Part shown: positions 2,604-33,883 of the stretch, piece after piece
Position numbering within the stretch: the first letter of the stretch is position 1
Layout: each line of letters starts with the position of its first letter
DNA from: a virus
Taxonomy: Duplodnaviria; Heunggongvirae; Uroviricota; Caudoviricetes
Length of the DNA: 56,715 bases
Reading direction: 5' to 3' (one strand)
IMG/VR virus record: IMGVR_UViG_2622736468_000005
Made by a program: the position numbers and the translations under genes
Notes under the pieces: model-generated
What the model saw: only the letters and a program-made list of their open reading frames with translations
What the model was told of the DNA's origin: nothing
Database searches by the model: none

Positions 2604-5600
2604 TATGCAAGCCTCACAATATAGTTAAATGCGATGTTTTTGACGGTGTTTTCCGCGTTACCAGCAGCGTTAACGGTGATGGTGTGTCCATGTGAACCAA
2701 TCGCAACCGAGTGCGTATGCGCACCAATACCTACAGTATGTGCGTGTGCACCTGCGCTTGCAGCAGTACCCGATACAGAGTGCGTATGAGCGCCTGCAGA
2801 AGAAGTGTTAACACTGTATTTAGAATAATCAGGTGATCCACTTCCCGGAGCACCTTTGGTGCCACCTGAAACAAATGTTATCGAATGGGTATGTGCACCG
2901 GCTGAAGCAGCCGTACCGCTAACACTATGGGTATGCGCCCCGGTGTTATTCGTGGATTTAGTGCCGTAATCAAACGACGATGTGGTTTTCGTCCCCAAAT
3001 CCGTACTGGATGCGCTGGCGCTGTGGGTGTGCGATTTAATGCCGTCCTGTTCCTGAGACAATACGGCCCGACCACTGGCAGGTTTGCCCTTAATCGTCCA
3101 GCCACGCATATCAGGGATCACGCCTGACGGATAAGCGGCTGCAAGTTTCGGGTATGCAGATTTGTCAAAAGTCTGCCCCTGCATCAGGGCATAACCAGAC
3201 GGAACGGTATCTGATGGCCACGGGATTGGTGCGCCGACTGGGTAGCTTTCTGGTGGAAGATTTTTCGAGGTATAAACTTCTGCCCAGTCTTCCTCAAAAC
3301 CATAGCCATCTCTTGAGGAACGGTAGAACAGACCTCCATTTCTGTAATGCGCCTTCATCCGCAGGGTCCGGCAACTTCCGACTCCGGTATAGAAGTTAAC
3401 CAGAATATAGCTGTTGCCAGAGCGGGTGACATTGTAAGCGCCTGATTCGGCATTCCATGGAACGCCACCATCCGCATCGGCATATGTATCCGTTGCCCTT
3501 CTGGCAAAAGCAGCCACATGCGCGGCGGTTAAAGTAATATCTTTTGAACCATCAAACTCAACCCCAGAAACCCGTCTTGGCGTTTGCAGCTTTGTTGCTG
3601 TCAATGCGTTACCGTTCAGACTTGCAGACAGCTTGGTTCCAATAACCAGTTCGCCGGTTGCGTTATCAATAGCAAACGGTCTTAATGTATTCCATCCACC
3701 ATAAACATCACCTTGATTGGTAAGCAGCAGGTAAGTTTTAGCGCCATCATTACGCCATAATGCCCCATACTCCCCACCTATCATTCGAATCTGATTACCA
3801 CCACGCGCTACAATTTCGTCTGTGGCAAAAAGTTTTTTGCACGACAAGTTATCGTTAACGATTAACGAATGGGACTCATAAAAACCACGCCCACTCTTAA
3901 AATCAAGGATAACGTCCGCCGCGATACATTCAGTCGCCGGATTTGTTGCCCCAAACTTATAGGTCGTATCATTAACAACGAGATCAGCACCAGGTGCGGA
4001 TATTGACAGGCCATCTTCGATAAACGCAAAAACAGGGAAAGCAGCGCCATCAACATAGAACACAGAGCGCAAATCATCGCCCTTATTACTCATCATTATT
4101 GAGTGGATGGCTCGTTCATTGTTTTGATATTGCCAGAACATTCCATAAGCATAACGCCCCCTGTCAGTCCAGCCACCAGGCATAACAAATCCGTTAAACT
4201 CGCAGTTATTCATCGGATCGCCTGCGGTTCGCGTTGCCGTGGTGATAATGACCCTTGATGCCAGTTCGCTTACTGAGCCAGCAGAACGCATAACAACAAC
4301 AGGATAATATTTTCCAGATGTTGCACCTGCAGGAGCGTTAACCCGCACATAACGCATACCACGTTTATCAGCAAAGTCTGTTTTACTGACCGCGTTAATG
4401 TTGTTCAGGAAGCGTCCCTTATCGGGTATATCAGCGCCGTTCTGGTCTTTCTGCAGACGTTTCTCTGCATTGTCATAGGCTGCTTTTACTGCCTTTGGCG
4501 TTGCCGCCAGCGTTTCAGACGTGCTGTTGGTCGCGCTGCTGAGCTGTACTATCCCCTTTTTCGTCGTGCTCGCATCCTCAAGCGCCACGGCGGATGCAAT
4601 ATCCTCTGCCCGTTTTGCCGCTGTCTCGGCGCGCGTTGCCGCGGATTCCGCCGTACTTTTGCTCTGAGCTGCCGCCGTCGCACTGCCAGCTGCCTCTGTC
4701 GCCTTCGTGGATGCCGTCGTGGCGCTGCCCTTTGCTGCTGACGCCTGTCTGGTCGCCTCATCTTTTGAAGCAGACGCAGATGATGCCGATGACGCCGCCG
4801 AACTGGCGGACGATGCGGCAGCCGTTTTTGAGGATTCTGCGCTGGTTTCCGAGGCTTTCGCGTTCGTTTCGGATGTCTTCGCTGCCTCTTTTGAGGCCGC
4901 CGCATCCCGTGCTGAAGTGGCTGCTTCTGACGCTTTCGTGGTCGCGGTGGATGCAGAAGTGGCTGCTGATTGTTGTGACGCTGCCGCATTCGTTTCTGAC
5001 GTTTTCGCCGCACCGGCACTGGTAGCCGCCGCGCTTTTTGAGGACTCTGCAGCGGCAGCACTTTTTGATGTTTCAGTAGCCTTTGTTGATGCCGTTCCTG
5101 CGCTGGAAGACGCTGACTGAGCCGACATCGCGGCCTGCCCGGCTGATGTGCTGGCTGCACGTGCTGAGCCTGCAGCATCAGTCGCATGGGTTGCCGCCTC
5201 ACTGGCAGATATGCTGGCATCGCTGGCTGACTTCTTCGCGGCTGCCGTGTTCTGTGCCACCGCGGACGCGTTACGCGCCACCTCTTCCACCATCAGTTCA
5301 AAACGGCGCAGTGCCTCAGGACGGGCATCATCCTCCGTCATGGCACCGAGAAAATCATTCAGCGTACCTGGTCTGGAACCTTCATAGACGGTAATGGTCC
5401 CGGCATGTGAAGGCGGAAAACCTTCAACCAGCAGGGTGACGCTGTACTGACCATGCTCAACATCCATGCTGTAACGTCCGGCTTCATCCGGATTTTCAGA
5501 GGCCACCGTGTTCACCACCACCGTGCTGCTGGTTCGTCTGGCCTTCAGCACAATGGTGCAGTTCTGTACTGGTTTTCCTGTGCCATCTTTAAGCACGCCA

Positions 5601-13812: not shown

Positions 13813-14154
13813 CTATGAGATTACCTGCTCAATCGTGCAACTGAAATCACTGTACCGGGCATTATCCGTGACACTCCACTCACGGCACACAACCCTCACC
13901 GTTCGGTTATGTTTCGGCGGTCGCCACAAAAAGGCACGGTAACCACCATGCCACGATAAAAACTCTTCCAGCCATCGCCGGGTCGCCTCATCCGTCACCC
14001 GGAACACCGCCTGAAACGTCTTCAGTCGGGCATTAAGTCCCGTCGGGCGGCGCTGTTCATAACCGTCACCAAACCGTACCCTCGCCACCGACGGTTTCTC
14101 ACTCACCTGCATCCCTTCACGCGGGACCAGATGCAGCGTTTTTATCTCAGCCAC
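13813..14154 (-). CDS. M: minor tail protein M
   Basis: 113-aa ORF with VRFGDGYEQR...GLNA motif as in lambda gpM; position between H and L. Confidence 0.8.
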   Translation of the reverse strand: MAEIKTLHLVPREGMQVSEKPSVARVRFGDGYEQRRPTGLNARLKTFQAVFRVTDEATRRWLEEFLSWHGGYRAFLWRPPKHNRTVRVVCREWSVTDNARYSDFSCTIEQVIS

Positions 14155-30375: not shown

Positions 30376-30480
30376 GGATATTTATCAGGATTTATCGGTT
30401 TCTGAGCCCTGGATATGTTTATCAGTTCCAGCCTGTTGCCTCAGGCTGCTAACAGGTCAATACAATCATGAGGATTATTT

Positions 30481-30753
30481 ATGGACAATAACACCATTTC
30501 TCTACAGGAGTTGCTCGACAGCATTTCCAGGCTTCGGGAAGACGTGAATACCCTTACCGTCGCCTTCTCATATCTGGCATTCTCAATTCCAAGGGAACAG
30601 ATGCAATCAACGCTGGCATCAATCCAGTTTGAATCATGCAATCCCAAATGGTCTCAGGAACAACAAGACTCTTTCAGGCGGCTTGCTGTATTACTGGATG
30701 AAAAATATGCTGGTAAAATTACCATTTCGGCGGACTCTTCAGAGAACCCGTAA
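30481..30753 (+). CDS. hypothetical protein (opposite-strand gene inside lysis cassette)
   Basis: 90-aa ORF with GAGGA RBS 7 nt upstream; convergent with 30719..31063. Confidence 0.4.
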   Translation: MDNNTISLQELLDSISRLREDVNTLTVAFSYLAFSIPREQMQSTLASIQFESCNPKWSQEQQDSFRRLAVLLDEKYAGKITISADSSENP

Positions 30754-31063
30754 TTATTCCCGGTAGTTTTCCTCTGTAGGTTATCAACACATCCTGCGCC
30801 TCTAAAATTACGGGGCGCTTTTCCGGCGACTGCTCATCCCCTTCACATAACCCGGCAGCAACATCCAGGAAGACCTGTCTGATGCTCCTTCTGGCTGCTG
30901 CCTCATAAAACTCCAGCGCGGCACCTTCAACACGGTCCAGCGAGATGTCCAGGTCAAAAATTTCACCGTCAAAGCGTTTTTTGTCCCGTAACGCTAAAGT
31001 TACCGTAACTTTATTCTCAAAATTGCGGATCCCTTTCACAATCAGTTCATAGTTTTGAGTCAT
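30719..31063 (-). CDS. hypothetical protein between holin and endolysin
   Basis: 114-aa ORF with GGAGAG RBS; starts 4 nt after holin stop. Confidence 0.4.
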   Translation of the reverse strand: MTQNYELIVKGIRNFENKVTVTLALRDKKRFDGEIFDLDISLDRVEGAALEFYEAAARRSIRQVFLDVAAGLCEGDEQSPEKRPVILEAQDVLITYRGKLPGIITGSLKSPPKW

Positions 31064-31067
31064 TGAA

Positions 31068-31283
31068 TTACTCTCCCCGTGCCGCCTTACGACGGTCCTC
31101 TCTGATTTTGAAATACAGGTTAGTCAGATATGTCAGCAGCCCAAACAGCAGACTCCCCAGCACGCCTATTGCCGCCCACTGAGACGGGGAAACCCTGTCC
31201 AGCAACTGCAGGAACCAGTAGCCCGTTCCCACCGCTGACGTGGTGTATGACACACCTGTTGTGATTTTTTCCATCTGGTACAT
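31068..31283 (-). CDS. S: pinholin (phage 21 S-like class II holin)
   Basis: Start taken at Met27 of the track ORF 31068..31361 ([10 protein letters not shown]..., dual-start motif); two TM segments; C-terminus ...[22 protein letters not shown] matches S21. Confidence 0.8.
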
Positions 31284-31433
31284 ACCCCGTCTCCCGTTAT
31301 CCGGAAGCTGACAACAATAAAAAAAGCCACCAGTTAAGTACTGATGGCTCTGATAACTCATGCAGGCGTCTCAGACGACCCACTGACACTACCGGTGAGT
31401 TTAACGATACCTTCCATTTGACTGGCTCACTTT

Positions 31434-33302
31434 TTATGATGATGCCGGTGCATTTATCTCCAGCACCAGACTTTCTATCTCAACGCCATACGCTGCATTT
31501 TTTGTAACATCCGTCAGCGTCAGCGCATTCAGCCCCAGTGTCAGACTGTCTTTTATGACCTGGAATGCCGGGCCAACCAGTCCATTCAGTTTCGGAGTAA
31601 CCGTGGCACTGCCGGCGGTGAACACCAGCTCCAGCGTCTGCCAGTCGTTACTGTAATTCCCGAACTCGCCCAACTTTGTGTTTCCGGCTTTCTTGTGATG
31701 CATCAGATTCAGTTTGCCGTCTGTGGTCTGGGTGAAGAACGACATCAGGAACGGGTTACCAGTCCCGGTCATCGCCACGACGTCAGGTAACGCTACATCG
31801 GTATACAGATAAATTCCCAGACCGAACTGGTTGTTGGTCAGTGCGCCTGACAGTCGAAACTTACAGCTCAGTCTGCCACCCCGTGTCAGCAGGGAGACTG
31901 CGTCATCCACCGGGCGCGTCAGGGACCAGGCTTTATTGCTCTGCTTGGCGATCTTAAATACACCATCTGACAACTGAATTCCGCCATTCTTAATGCTCCA
32001 GCCCTGCGCAGCAGCATCTCCGGCTGTCGGCAACAGGGAGATTGTGCGTACGGATGCATCTTCAGACGGCCCCGATGGCGTGTCGCCGCCGGGCGAGGGT
32101 TTGATTTCCGGTGCCTTACCACTGATGAAGGCTGAGGTGCGACCGGCTACGTTCAGAATAGCAGTTGCCATACGATCCGGAATAATGCTCCTGCGCGCCC
32201 ATGAACTGAAATGTGTCGGGCGGTTTGATGATACCTGGTTTCCATTCGTTCTCGATGCCGCACCGTAATATCCTGATGCCGGAATATCCGGATCTTCTGC
32301 CGGTGCGTTAGTGGCGGTATTGACGCCGTTACCGTCTGTCATGAAGGGCACAAAATAAACGCCCTCACTCTCCCTGTTTTTATACCCTCCGTACACGGTG
32401 TCGTACTGGGTAGCGTATGTATTTTTCCAGTAATACGTCGTGTCACCACAAATCCACGGCACATCTGCAGCACTGCCACCATGACACTGCGCGTTAAACA
32501 CAGTGAGGTCAGCACGAAACTGCTTCAGCATGGCTGTAAACAGCGCAGGTTGCTGTGCGTAGGTGGCGGCGCTCATGTCAAACTCTCCCTGCATCCAGCA
32601 CACCGCCAGCAACACATTTTTCGGGTTCTTCTGTAATGCAGCTTTAGTGCGCGCAATCAGGTCCTGATATAACGGTTTACCCACACCCCAGCGTGCCGAA
32701 TCCTGGCTGGCCCCCGTGTCCGCACTGAATGTCCCCTCCGCGCCCTGGGTGAATGCCGAACCACCACGACAGCATGGTACCAGCAGGATCCCCGCGTTAT
32801 TCGGGATATACGGAAGCAGTTTTTTGGCAATATGTAAGCCCTGGCCGACACAGCCGTACTGCCCTTTGCTCAGGTCTGCCTTCGGATGATTCAGCGTACT
32901 CATATCCTGCACATCATGCAGGCAGTGGTCGGCCGGAATAATATCGTTATATCTGCAGGCAGCCCCACCCGGCGTCACTGTACTGCGGCGCGCCAGCTGT
33001 TTAATGCGCGGATCCGGAGCATCGTATGAATCCGGCAGCGGAAGCCCTTCACCGTAAGCCATGGCATTGGACTGCCCGGCCAGTACGATGACGTAGTACC
33101 ACTCCGGCTCAGTTGCACCACTGACGACCACATCACCTTCTGCTGCAATCGCCTGCATCAGGGTATAAGGGGTTATGGCCACCGGACTACCAAACGGCTG
33201 CCAGCCCTCTTTCAGTTTATGTGTCAGCTTTTCCGCAAGATCTGACGGCGACGCCGCCCTGACAACATCATAGTGTTTAAATGCCATGGTTCTTTCCACC
33301 AT
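31434..33302 (-). CDS. prophage-encoded sialate O-acetylesterase-like protein (NanS-p / YjhS family, SGNH-type)
   Basis: 622-aa ORF with VIVLAGQSNAMAYG esterase motif; located between tRNA/Q region and lysis genes, as nanS-p is in Stx-type prophages. Confidence 0.65.
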   Translation of the reverse strand: MVERTMAFKHYDVVRAASPSDLAEKLTHKLKEGWQPFGSPVAITPYTLMQAIAAEGDVVVSGATEPEWYYVIVLAGQSNAMAYGEGLPLPDSYDAPDPRIKQLARRSTVTPGGAACRYNDIIPADHCLHDVQDMSTLNHPKADLSKGQYGCVGQGLHIAKKLLPYIPNNAGILLVPCCRGGSAFTQGAEGTFSADTGASQDSARWGVGKPLYQDLIARTKAALQKNPKNVLLAVCWMQGEFDMSAATYAQQPALFTAMLKQFRADLTVFNAQCHGGSAADVPWICGDTTYYWKNTYATQYDTVYGGYKNRESEGVYFVPFMTDGNGVNTATNAPAEDPDIPASGYYGAASRTNGNQVSSNRPTHFSSWARRSIIPDRMATAILNVAGRTSAFISGKAPEIKPSPGGDTPSGPSEDASVRTISLLPTAGDAAAQGWSIKNGGIQLSDGVFKIAKQSNKAWSLTRPVDDAVSLLTRGGRLSCKFRLSGALTNNQFGLGIYLYTDVALPDVVAMTGTGNPFLMSFFTQTTDGKLNLMHHKKAGNTKLGEFGNYSNDWQTLELVFTAGSATVTPKLNGLVGPAFQVIKDSLTLGLNALTLTDVTKNAAYGVEIESLVLEINAPASS

Positions 33303-33547: not shown

Positions 33548-33883
33548 ATGAAGTGGATTGTGATTGATACAGTTATCCAGCCATCATGCGGAATATCTTT
33601 TTCAGTCATATGGAGTAAAATAAAATTAATAATCTGGTATCAATCGGATGCTTTCTTACCTCCTGAAAGTATATTTACACTGACTCACACAGGCATCATG
33701 CTCAATAACAAAGTGCTACCTGTAACCATTTACAACGTAGTACCATTCAATAAAACATTCTGGAATTTAATCAAAAACAGCCAGGAATGCCCTACAAATA
33801 CAGATAACGTATTGAATGAATGCTTTAATAACCGTTGCACTCTGCAAATATGTCCTTATGGGCTAAAACAACAAAGTCCATAA
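33548..33883 (+). CDS. hypothetical Cys-containing protein, very AT-rich orphan gene
   Basis: 111-aa ORF; upstream TTTACA-17 bp-TATACT promoter-like sequence and AAGGA RBS; no recognisable family. Confidence 0.35.

Follow-up and report, generated by a model that had tools for sequence, protein, structure and literature searches.

What are two small genes, facing one another and overlapping at their 3' ends, doing between the holin and the endolysin of a prophage? The question is raised by a 56,715-nt stretch of Caudoviricetes DNA (IMG/VR virus record IMGVR_UViG_2622736468_000005), here called the window, in which all positions are numbered and whose late (lysis) operon is transcribed on the minus strand. 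The endolysin start at 30375(-) and the holin stop codon, which begins at 31068(-), are separated by 692 bp that hold a 114-aa open reading frame (ORF) on the late strand, referred to below as gene B, and a 90-aa ORF on the opposite strand, gene A. The original prediction, made from the letters alone, had placed both ORFs correctly, with good ribosome-binding sites, overlapping 3' ends and a separation of about 700 bp, and took the plus-strand gene as a sign of an independently regulated moron, possibly a lysis regulator or of use in defence or anti-defence, within a pair of lysis genes that are normally adjacent. Both ORFs are real, conserved genes, and convergent pairing with a late-strand partner is constant across the phage contexts of gene A homologues that could be read and recurs in most related cassettes.

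Two conserved genes between holin and endolysin

Gene B begins 4 nt past the holin stop codon, with the Shine-Dalgarno sequence GGAGAG 7 nt ahead of its ATG, and encodes a protein of the YdfR family. Pfam PF07041 (DUF1327) covers residues 1-111 at 145 bits (E 7e-43), far above its curated cut-off of 25, phrog_406 is matched at E 4e-68, and identity to the YdfR of E. coli K-12 is 70% over its length. Of 5426 complete E. coli genomes, 3574 (66%) have the ydfR core, and it lies between holin and lysozyme at every ydfR locus for which annotation was fetched, including the Qin prophage of K-12. In E. coli it is thus the usual state for a further gene to separate an S21 holin from its endolysin, and the premise that the two are normally adjacent is not supported. 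The Qin cassette, essQ-ydfR-rrrQ, has the same holin, YdfR core and lysozyme as the window in the same order and on the same strand, but its YdfR is 103 aa long with a different C-terminus, ydfR and rrrQ overlap by 4 nt, and there is no gene A and neither an opposite-strand promoter nor a leader. The 114-aa gene almost certainly belongs to the late transcript and is not a separate unit, and the notion of an independently regulated moron is not supported for it. Members of the YdfR family occur in lengths of 103, 104, 114, 116, 176, 183, 196 and 268 aa (e.g., P0125, P0159 and L004:2510-3316). These variants arise by swapped or duplicated segments past the conserved core of about 77 residues, and the C-terminus is a recombination hot spot.

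Gene A has the Shine-Dalgarno sequence GAGGA 6 nt ahead of its ATG and matches phrog_2411 over its full length (positions 1-90 of 90, E 1e-58). The window corresponds to a lambdoid prophage of E. coli ST131. Over a 343-nt query taken from the region it shows 100% identity to the ST131 strain EC958, where RefSeq has both genes (WP_000193278.1 and WP_000369850.1), that for A labelled "hypothetical". In all, 62 homologues of A were found; in Escherichia, Shigella and Citrobacter, those as little as about 58% identical still measure 83-90 aa. When 1.84 billion representatives were searched exhaustively with a profile, only 20 clusters came up, reaching identities of 24-40%. Pairwise ratios of nonsynonymous to synonymous substitution (dN/dS) are 0.17-0.33, with differences mostly at third codon positions. 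The antisense frame gives equally low values, as expected for a frame that shares wobble positions, but stops break it in the Citrobacter homologue, which identifies the plus-strand reading as the conserved one. Within E. coli, gene A is carried by 1040 of the 5426 complete genomes (19%), with 534 near-identical copies.

As read from the sequence, the A protein is acidic and has no hydrophobic segment of transmembrane length. An AlphaFold2 model has four helices at modest confidence, with a predicted local distance difference test score (pLDDT) of 68, and a Foldseek comparison with the PDB returned nothing below E 1, for which reason no inference is drawn from its fold. Sequence searches of Pfam, NCBIfam and the PDB gave no usable match to A; an NCBIfam assignment as 'Mip' was dismissed at 13.7 bits against a cut-off of 50. 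No functional data were found in the literature for DUF1327, ybl58, DUF1883, 'srb', or the RefSeq and PHROG entries of the pair. The features of the region are collected in Table 1.

Table 1. Features of the holin-endolysin interval and its flanking genes (window coordinates)
Feature	Coordinates	Strand	Basis
S21-type class II holin (pinholin), 71 aa	31068..31283	-	Pfam PF04971, E 2e-32; MYQM dual start
Gene B, YdfR-family protein, 114 aa; DUF1327 core at about residues 1-77 plus C-terminal tail ...PEKRPVILEAQDVLITYRGKLPGIITGSLKSPPKW	30719..31063	-	Pfam DUF1327
Overlap of the two convergent 3' ends, 35 nt	30719..30753		ORF coordinates
Gene A, acidic helical protein, 90 aa, phrog_2411; core motif L..AFSYLAFSIP....ES.N.	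30481..30753	+	PHROG match, homologues
Segment exchanged for about 21 bp in S-ydfR-R cassettes without gene A (e.g., vB_EcoS-733R4, BP-4795)	30430..30723		Pairwise blastn boundaries
Short degenerate 5' leader of A: hairpin CAGCCUG-UUGCCU-CAGGCUG (30429-30448), Shine-Dalgarno GAGGA (30470-30474)	30425..30480	+	Sequence
Predicted sigma-70-like promoter of A: -35 TTTATC (30391-30396), 17-nt spacer, -10 TATGTT (30414-30419)	30391..30419	+	Conserved block
Endolysin (phage lysozyme family), SAR (signal-anchor-release)-like N-terminus	29842..30375	-	Pfam PF00959, E 5e-24; RefSeq 'lysozyme'

A late-strand partner for gene A in all phage contexts read

In all eight independent phage contexts that could be read, homologues of A are met at their 3' ends by a convergent ORF on the late strand that overlaps them by 7-35 nt, which bears out the treatment of the two genes as a pair. 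The contexts comprise the window type, between holin and endolysin with YdfR as partner, a position upstream of a lambda-type holin in Citrobacter (L013), a position between tail genes M and L (L024 and L030), and three further contigs. Four of the partners are clearly homologous to one another. Even A homologues of only 24-38% identity are met by such a partner, convergent and overlapping on the late strand, at three different genomic positions. The association is asymmetric: B occurs without A, as the 3574 and 1040 genomes attest, and A was never seen without B in phage contexts. Chromosomal homologues of A without a partner exist in Serratia (dinI-A-bssS) and in one other genome.

Within the overlap it is the partner's tail that is the constrained reading. 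The window and Citrobacter differ there by synonymous changes in the minus-strand frame, and the last 10 residues of A are unconserved, with pLDDT below 50. The last 11 residues of the window YdfR resemble the C-termini of the Citrobacter and metagenome partner ORFs (ITGSLKxPP), a motif that is kept across those synonymous differences.

Several observations concern the surroundings of A homologues. In the Citrobacter prophage, a HicA/HicB-like toxin-antitoxin pair, assigned from its translation only, lies beside the convergent pair upstream of the holin (L013:5087-5770(+)). Insertion sequences (IS) adjoin gene A in two relatives, an IS66-family ISEc8 and an IS110-family element (L007:151-2463, E. 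coli 2013C-4974; L010:999-2997); in 2013C-4974 the IS sits between the promoter region of gene A and the endolysin. The distant chromosomal homologues (about 35% identity; phrog_2411 E 4.5e-10) are single genes in Serratia species and an Enterobacterales metagenome-assembled genome (L014:3974-4255(+), L015-L020). The gene order there is pyrC-dinI-X-bssS-solA, each homologue following the dinI terminator with no convergent partner, and in E. coli K-12 the dinI-bssS position is an empty gap of 286 bp.

The predicted promoter and the leader RNA of gene A

Upstream of gene A, the sequence supports transcription from a conserved promoter of its own, predicted to diverge from the endolysin start codon 39-44 nt away and to initiate near 30426; A would thus be an independently transcribed insert in the late operon. 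From the endolysin start codon to 30419 the window is near-identical to E. coli strain S22EC and to Stx2 phage 86, in which other small genes follow. Among 58 distinct upstream regions of related cassettes, 57 have a TAnnnT hexamer, and in 52 of those 57 it stands 6 nt before the sequence UCAGCC. Another promoter candidate, TTGCCT-19-TACAAT, was rejected: transcription from it would begin inside the Shine-Dalgarno sequence, and the first base of its -10 hexamer differs between relatives. Inspection by eye also led to the rejection of a LexA box or integration host factor (IHF) site upstream of A, since the spacing was wrong.

Distant A homologues, from Citrobacter and from metagenome contigs, are preceded by a fuller element: TAnnnT, 6 nt, UCAGCC, a hairpin P1, a hairpin P2, and then the Shine-Dalgarno sequence and start codon. 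At least 120 loci of this kind were located when viral contigs were scanned for the DNA pattern, and among the matches listed the lengths peak sharply at 57-59 nt. P1 and P2 covary. Among 60 distinct sequences, P1 is 96.7% paired with compensatory changes at 6 of its 8 pairs, and the observed covariation was reached in 0 of 500 shuffles and collapsed in slid controls. At one position the commonest pair is U·G, and the RNA is therefore assigned to the strand of the downstream gene. The P2 loop (GAUGGCUGAUUA) is complementary to the UCAGCC at the 5' end of the leader and suggests a possible pseudoknot, both of whose putative strands were fixed by the DNA search pattern used to collect the leaders.

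A covariance model, R1, was built from the collected leaders. It detects a leader directly upstream of the small opposite-strand gene of S22EC (E 1e-8) and of that of Stx2 phage 86, gp06 (E 5e-8), and also upstream of five distant A homologues. Rfam 15 gave no match in the window or in seven loci that have the element, and RefSeq has nothing annotated over it in 224 E. coli genomes. An identity with the put antiterminator RNA of HK022 was considered and rejected, since the put residues (A3GACG7 pairing with C15-U19, and a triplex; PMC9378689) do not fit the leader. Examples of the element stand at L049:6139-6207(-), L296:314-383(+) and 4438-4508(+), L323:1322-1400(+) and L004:2108-2180(+); L326:1601-1705(+) corresponds to HK022 13979-14083, and 30391-30480 of the window is a reduced form.

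In enterobacterial temperate phages, the conserved promoter and a structured leader of about 60 nt stand ahead of many small genes of different kinds. The cargo proteins are 65-100 aa long, diverse and without assigned function, and include DUF1883 and several PHROG families. Whatever the cargo, a convergent partner was found at the cargo stop codon in 45 of 50 leader cassettes in viral contigs, and 33 of those 45 overlap. Large neighbouring ORFs in those contigs (at least 150 aa, within 3 kb) are mostly on the same strand as the partner (99 against 25 upstream, 71 against 17 downstream). Many of the partners start with M(T/N)LEQRVEALEK, and three, in L083, L281 and L307, are YdfR-like.

A mobile insert at the ydfR-endolysin junction

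Gene A is a mobile insert. The synteny comparison suggested with the original prediction was run, and the segment that carries A is an insertion relative to cassettes of the vB_EcoS-733R4 type and to K-12 Qin. It is missing from most of 370 phage records; relative to K-12 the difference additionally takes in the C-terminal 45 residues of YdfR. At the same junction Stx2 phage 86 has, besides a longer YdfR, another gene on the plus strand, gp06, which was rejected as an A homologue (hhalign probability 0.4%), and S22EC has yet another, of 79 aa. Because these three carry different genes there, the ydfR-endolysin junction can be regarded as a slot for alternative small genes on the opposite strand.

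A moron, in the concept reportedly introduced by Juhala et al. 2000, is a gene that lies between genes adjacent in relatives, and this is what is seen here: the segment is absent from the cassettes just named, and ydfR and rrrQ overlap in K-12. The proposal of an independently regulated moron thus survives for the plus-strand gene, with its delimited insert and conserved predicted promoter. After gene A no terminator-like site was found that could serve as a factor-independent terminator of its own; the gene overlaps ydfR instead.

Comparison with known systems

The only characterised system found to have a convergent opposite-strand/late-strand architecture is Tab/anti-Tab of the Pseudomonas aeruginosa phage JBD26. 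Tab, an 83-aa protein encoded on the opposite strand within the late operon and read from its own promoter, is expressed by the prophage and stops invading phages from assembling their tails; the adjoining late-strand gene 30 encodes anti-Tab, which binds and inactivates Tab and cannot be deleted alone (Patel et al. 2024, PMC10884400). As given in the JBD26 record, both genes encode 83 aa and they converge with a 3' overlap of 47 nt, compared with 35 nt in the window. The pair described here is like Tab/anti-Tab in that a small opposite-strand gene of the late operon converges on and overlaps a late-strand partner, and in that the partner may occur alone but the effector may not. It differs in host (Pseudomonas), in phage type (Mu-like) and in position, JBD26 having its pair between terminase genes and the window between holin and endolysin, and no conserved structured leader is reported for JBD26. 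The resemblance is best regarded as an analogy of design and not as family membership.

A closer parallel in regulatory sequence is found in phage HK022 (NC_002166), where the same promoter and a long-form leader (13979-14083; 84.8% over 104 nt) precede gp23, a gene annotated "srb protein; moron gene product" that sits between tail genes I and J and is read from the opposite strand. This 73-aa cargo converges on and overlaps a small late-strand gene, gp22 ("moron gene product"). The type of cassette has, through this HK022 annotation, already been flagged as a moron, and no function for gp22 or gp23 was found in the literature. A weak profile match connects gp23 with the A family (hhalign E 5e-4, probability 31%, 52 columns). 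The HK022 cassette differs from that of the window in its place in the tail operon, in that gp22 is unrelated to YdfR, and in the leader, which is degenerate in the window. The morons lambda bor and iraM are also small opposite-strand genes of the late region for which expression from the prophage is expected, but they have no obligatory convergent late-strand partner, and the promoter and leader are not common to them.

Possible roles of the pair and alternative explanations

We tentatively propose that A is an effector expressed by the prophage and B a neutraliser expressed late, a reading built on the analogy with Tab/anti-Tab. The 692 bp would then hold a convergent cassette of two genes, of a kind met repeatedly in the late operons of enterobacterial temperate phages. 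Because A is read from the other strand, with a conserved, predicted sigma-70-like promoter of its own, it could be expressed through its short leader from the repressed prophage, independently of late transcription; and because B follows the holin on the late strand after 4 nt, its timing would be tied to the late transcript, so that B would be produced only along with the Q-antiterminated message. The onset of late transcription would shut A down by head-on transcription and antisense pairing. A would most likely counter superinfecting phages at a late step, and B would neutralise A late in infection and so protect the prophage's own lytic cycle. The timing of expression, any interaction of A with B and any function in defence are what we infer. 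The asymmetry in occurrence, with B common without A, A not found without B in phages, and solitary A confined to chromosomes, is what is expected of an effector and its neutraliser.

Several results weigh against this proposal. Neither A nor YdfR resembles Tab or anti-Tab in sequence or in profile (hhalign probability 0.1% each), and PADLOC-DB 2.0 gave no match for A or YdfR at E up to 1. YdfR is far commoner than A. The C-terminal resemblance of YdfR to the other partners is marginal, these being the top 3 of 692 segments at E 0.013-0.14, and whole-sequence homology to the Citrobacter and metagenome partner ORFs is not significant, only the motif of about 11 residues being common to them; the AlphaFold2 model of YdfR (pLDDT 48) is too poor for use. 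The predicted promoter of A matches the consensus at only 7 of 12 positions, which is why a stock promoter scan upstream of A found nothing. The leader of the window is degenerate: the promoter, the CAGCCUG/CAGGCUG hairpin and the Shine-Dalgarno sequence are kept, P1 and P2 are lost, and alignment to the long-form leaders is confined to the UCAGCC and GGCUG elements. R1 finds nothing significant in the window (best E 0.83, and not at the leader of A) or at other E. coli loci of the window type.

An explanation to which we give equal weight, and hold just as provisionally, is that A and YdfR are functionally unrelated neighbours. YdfR would then be a late accessory protein of S21-type lysis cassettes, one that might modulate RNase E or the decay of RNA late in infection, and A a lysogenic-conversion moron comparable to bor and iraM that has come to rest in a hot spot, the overlap reflecting tight packing. 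K-12 YdfR is reported to bind the catalytic (N-terminal) domain of RNase E through a surface mapped to residues 1-72 and to co-purify with RNA, and its over-expression had little effect on the transcriptome (PMC13232886); no other experimental data on YdfR were found in the literature, and these point to a function of B that is unrelated to A. Most E. coli genomes with YdfR lack A, and the K-12 gene is translationally coupled to rrrQ; the junction is a mosaic hot spot for unrelated cargo genes, the same late region carries other small opposite-strand genes (iraM and one like ynfO), and the Serratia homologues of A stand alone. The difficulty for this explanation lies in the recurrence of the arrangement. 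Chance packing does not account for partners that move with their cargo into tail operons, nor for the convergent, overlapping partners that highly diverged A homologues retain at three genomic positions, nor for a partner of this kind in 45 of 50 related cassettes.

The effector-neutraliser proposal can also be set in a wider frame, which we regard as unlikely on balance while still worth stating. Cassettes in late operons (HK022, ES18, mEp213, Stx phages and many prophages) would make up a large class not described before, with the pair of the window as a degenerate example. Each would consist of the promoter, the leader of about 60 nt, a hypervariable antisense cargo gene for 65-100 aa and its cognate partner. 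These would be effector/self-immunity modules like Tab/anti-Tab, and the leader would represent a new family of cis-regulatory RNA.

It is a good deal less probable that the unit acts at the level of RNA, with the plus-strand transcript antisense to the 3' end of ydfR and to the 340 nt of untranslated late mRNA upstream of the endolysin gene R, so that pairing or head-on transcription would tune endolysin and spanin synthesis and hence lysis timing, the protein being secondary. The insert does uncouple R from a ydfR that it overlaps in K-12, the promoter is directed against the late operon a few tens of nucleotides from the start of R, and the 3' ends always overlap. Purifying selection on ORF A at the protein level and the keeping of its length across genera speak against such a role, as does the complete change of cargo genes between cassettes whose architecture is unchanged; the late-strand RNA of the insert has no unusual folding stability (z = -0.57) and no Rfam match.

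That one or both ORFs are spurious, or decaying and functionless remnants, is very improbable: some database copies of A are truncated or frameshifted (forms of 50-61 aa, P0061), the leader of the window is reduced, and A is in only 3 of 50,697 sequenced phage records, but the family matches are strong, length and dN/dS are constrained, the ORF and its ribosome-binding site are intact, and near-identical copies number in the hundreds.

Neighbouring features of the late region

On the late strand the genes follow in the order of a NanS-p-like esterase (31434..33302), the holin, the 114-aa ORF, an untranslated stretch and the endolysin. RefSeq labels the product at the position of the holin in EC958 a 'class II holin family protein'. 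The endolysin N-terminus, as read from the sequence, is rich in Gly and Ala and weakly hydrophobic, which is consistent with a SAR domain. Between the esterase gene and the holin start, at 31323-31351(-), a terminator-like hairpin is followed by a T-run (AGAGCCATCAGT...GGTGGCTTTTTTTATTG); as it precedes the lysis genes on the late strand, the late transcript must read through this site.

The endolysin and the Rz/Rz1 spanin genes are spaced by about 540 bp (window 29200-29841(-)) with several small minus-strand ORFs, a second interruption of the lysis cassette. One of these ORFs, 29418..29549(-), encodes a hydrophobic product of 43 aa, and EC958 has three tiny hypothetical proteins there. Two further small genes on the opposite strand of the late region were placed by mapping to EC958, so that their positions are approximate: the anti-adaptor gene iraM at about 33548-33883(+) and a YlcI/YnfO-family gene at about 28094-28294(+). 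R1 has no match in the window that would indicate the conserved leader upstream of either.

Significance

Both genes had been catalogued before without an assigned function; what is new is the recurring convergent-pair architecture and its conserved promoter and leader, which appear not to have been described. YdfR is one of the commonest E. coli prophage genes to lack an assigned function, and about one in five complete E. coli genomes has the 90-aa gene, the pandemic ST131 lineage among them. Cargo genes of this kind can be sought simply by the sequence of the conserved promoter and leader, and the leader is itself a candidate for a new regulatory RNA. If the pair is an effector/self-immunity module, YdfR would gain a role, and the lysis cassettes and tail operons of lambdoid prophages would be home to many small phage-exclusion genes, unrelated in sequence, that escape current defence-finders.

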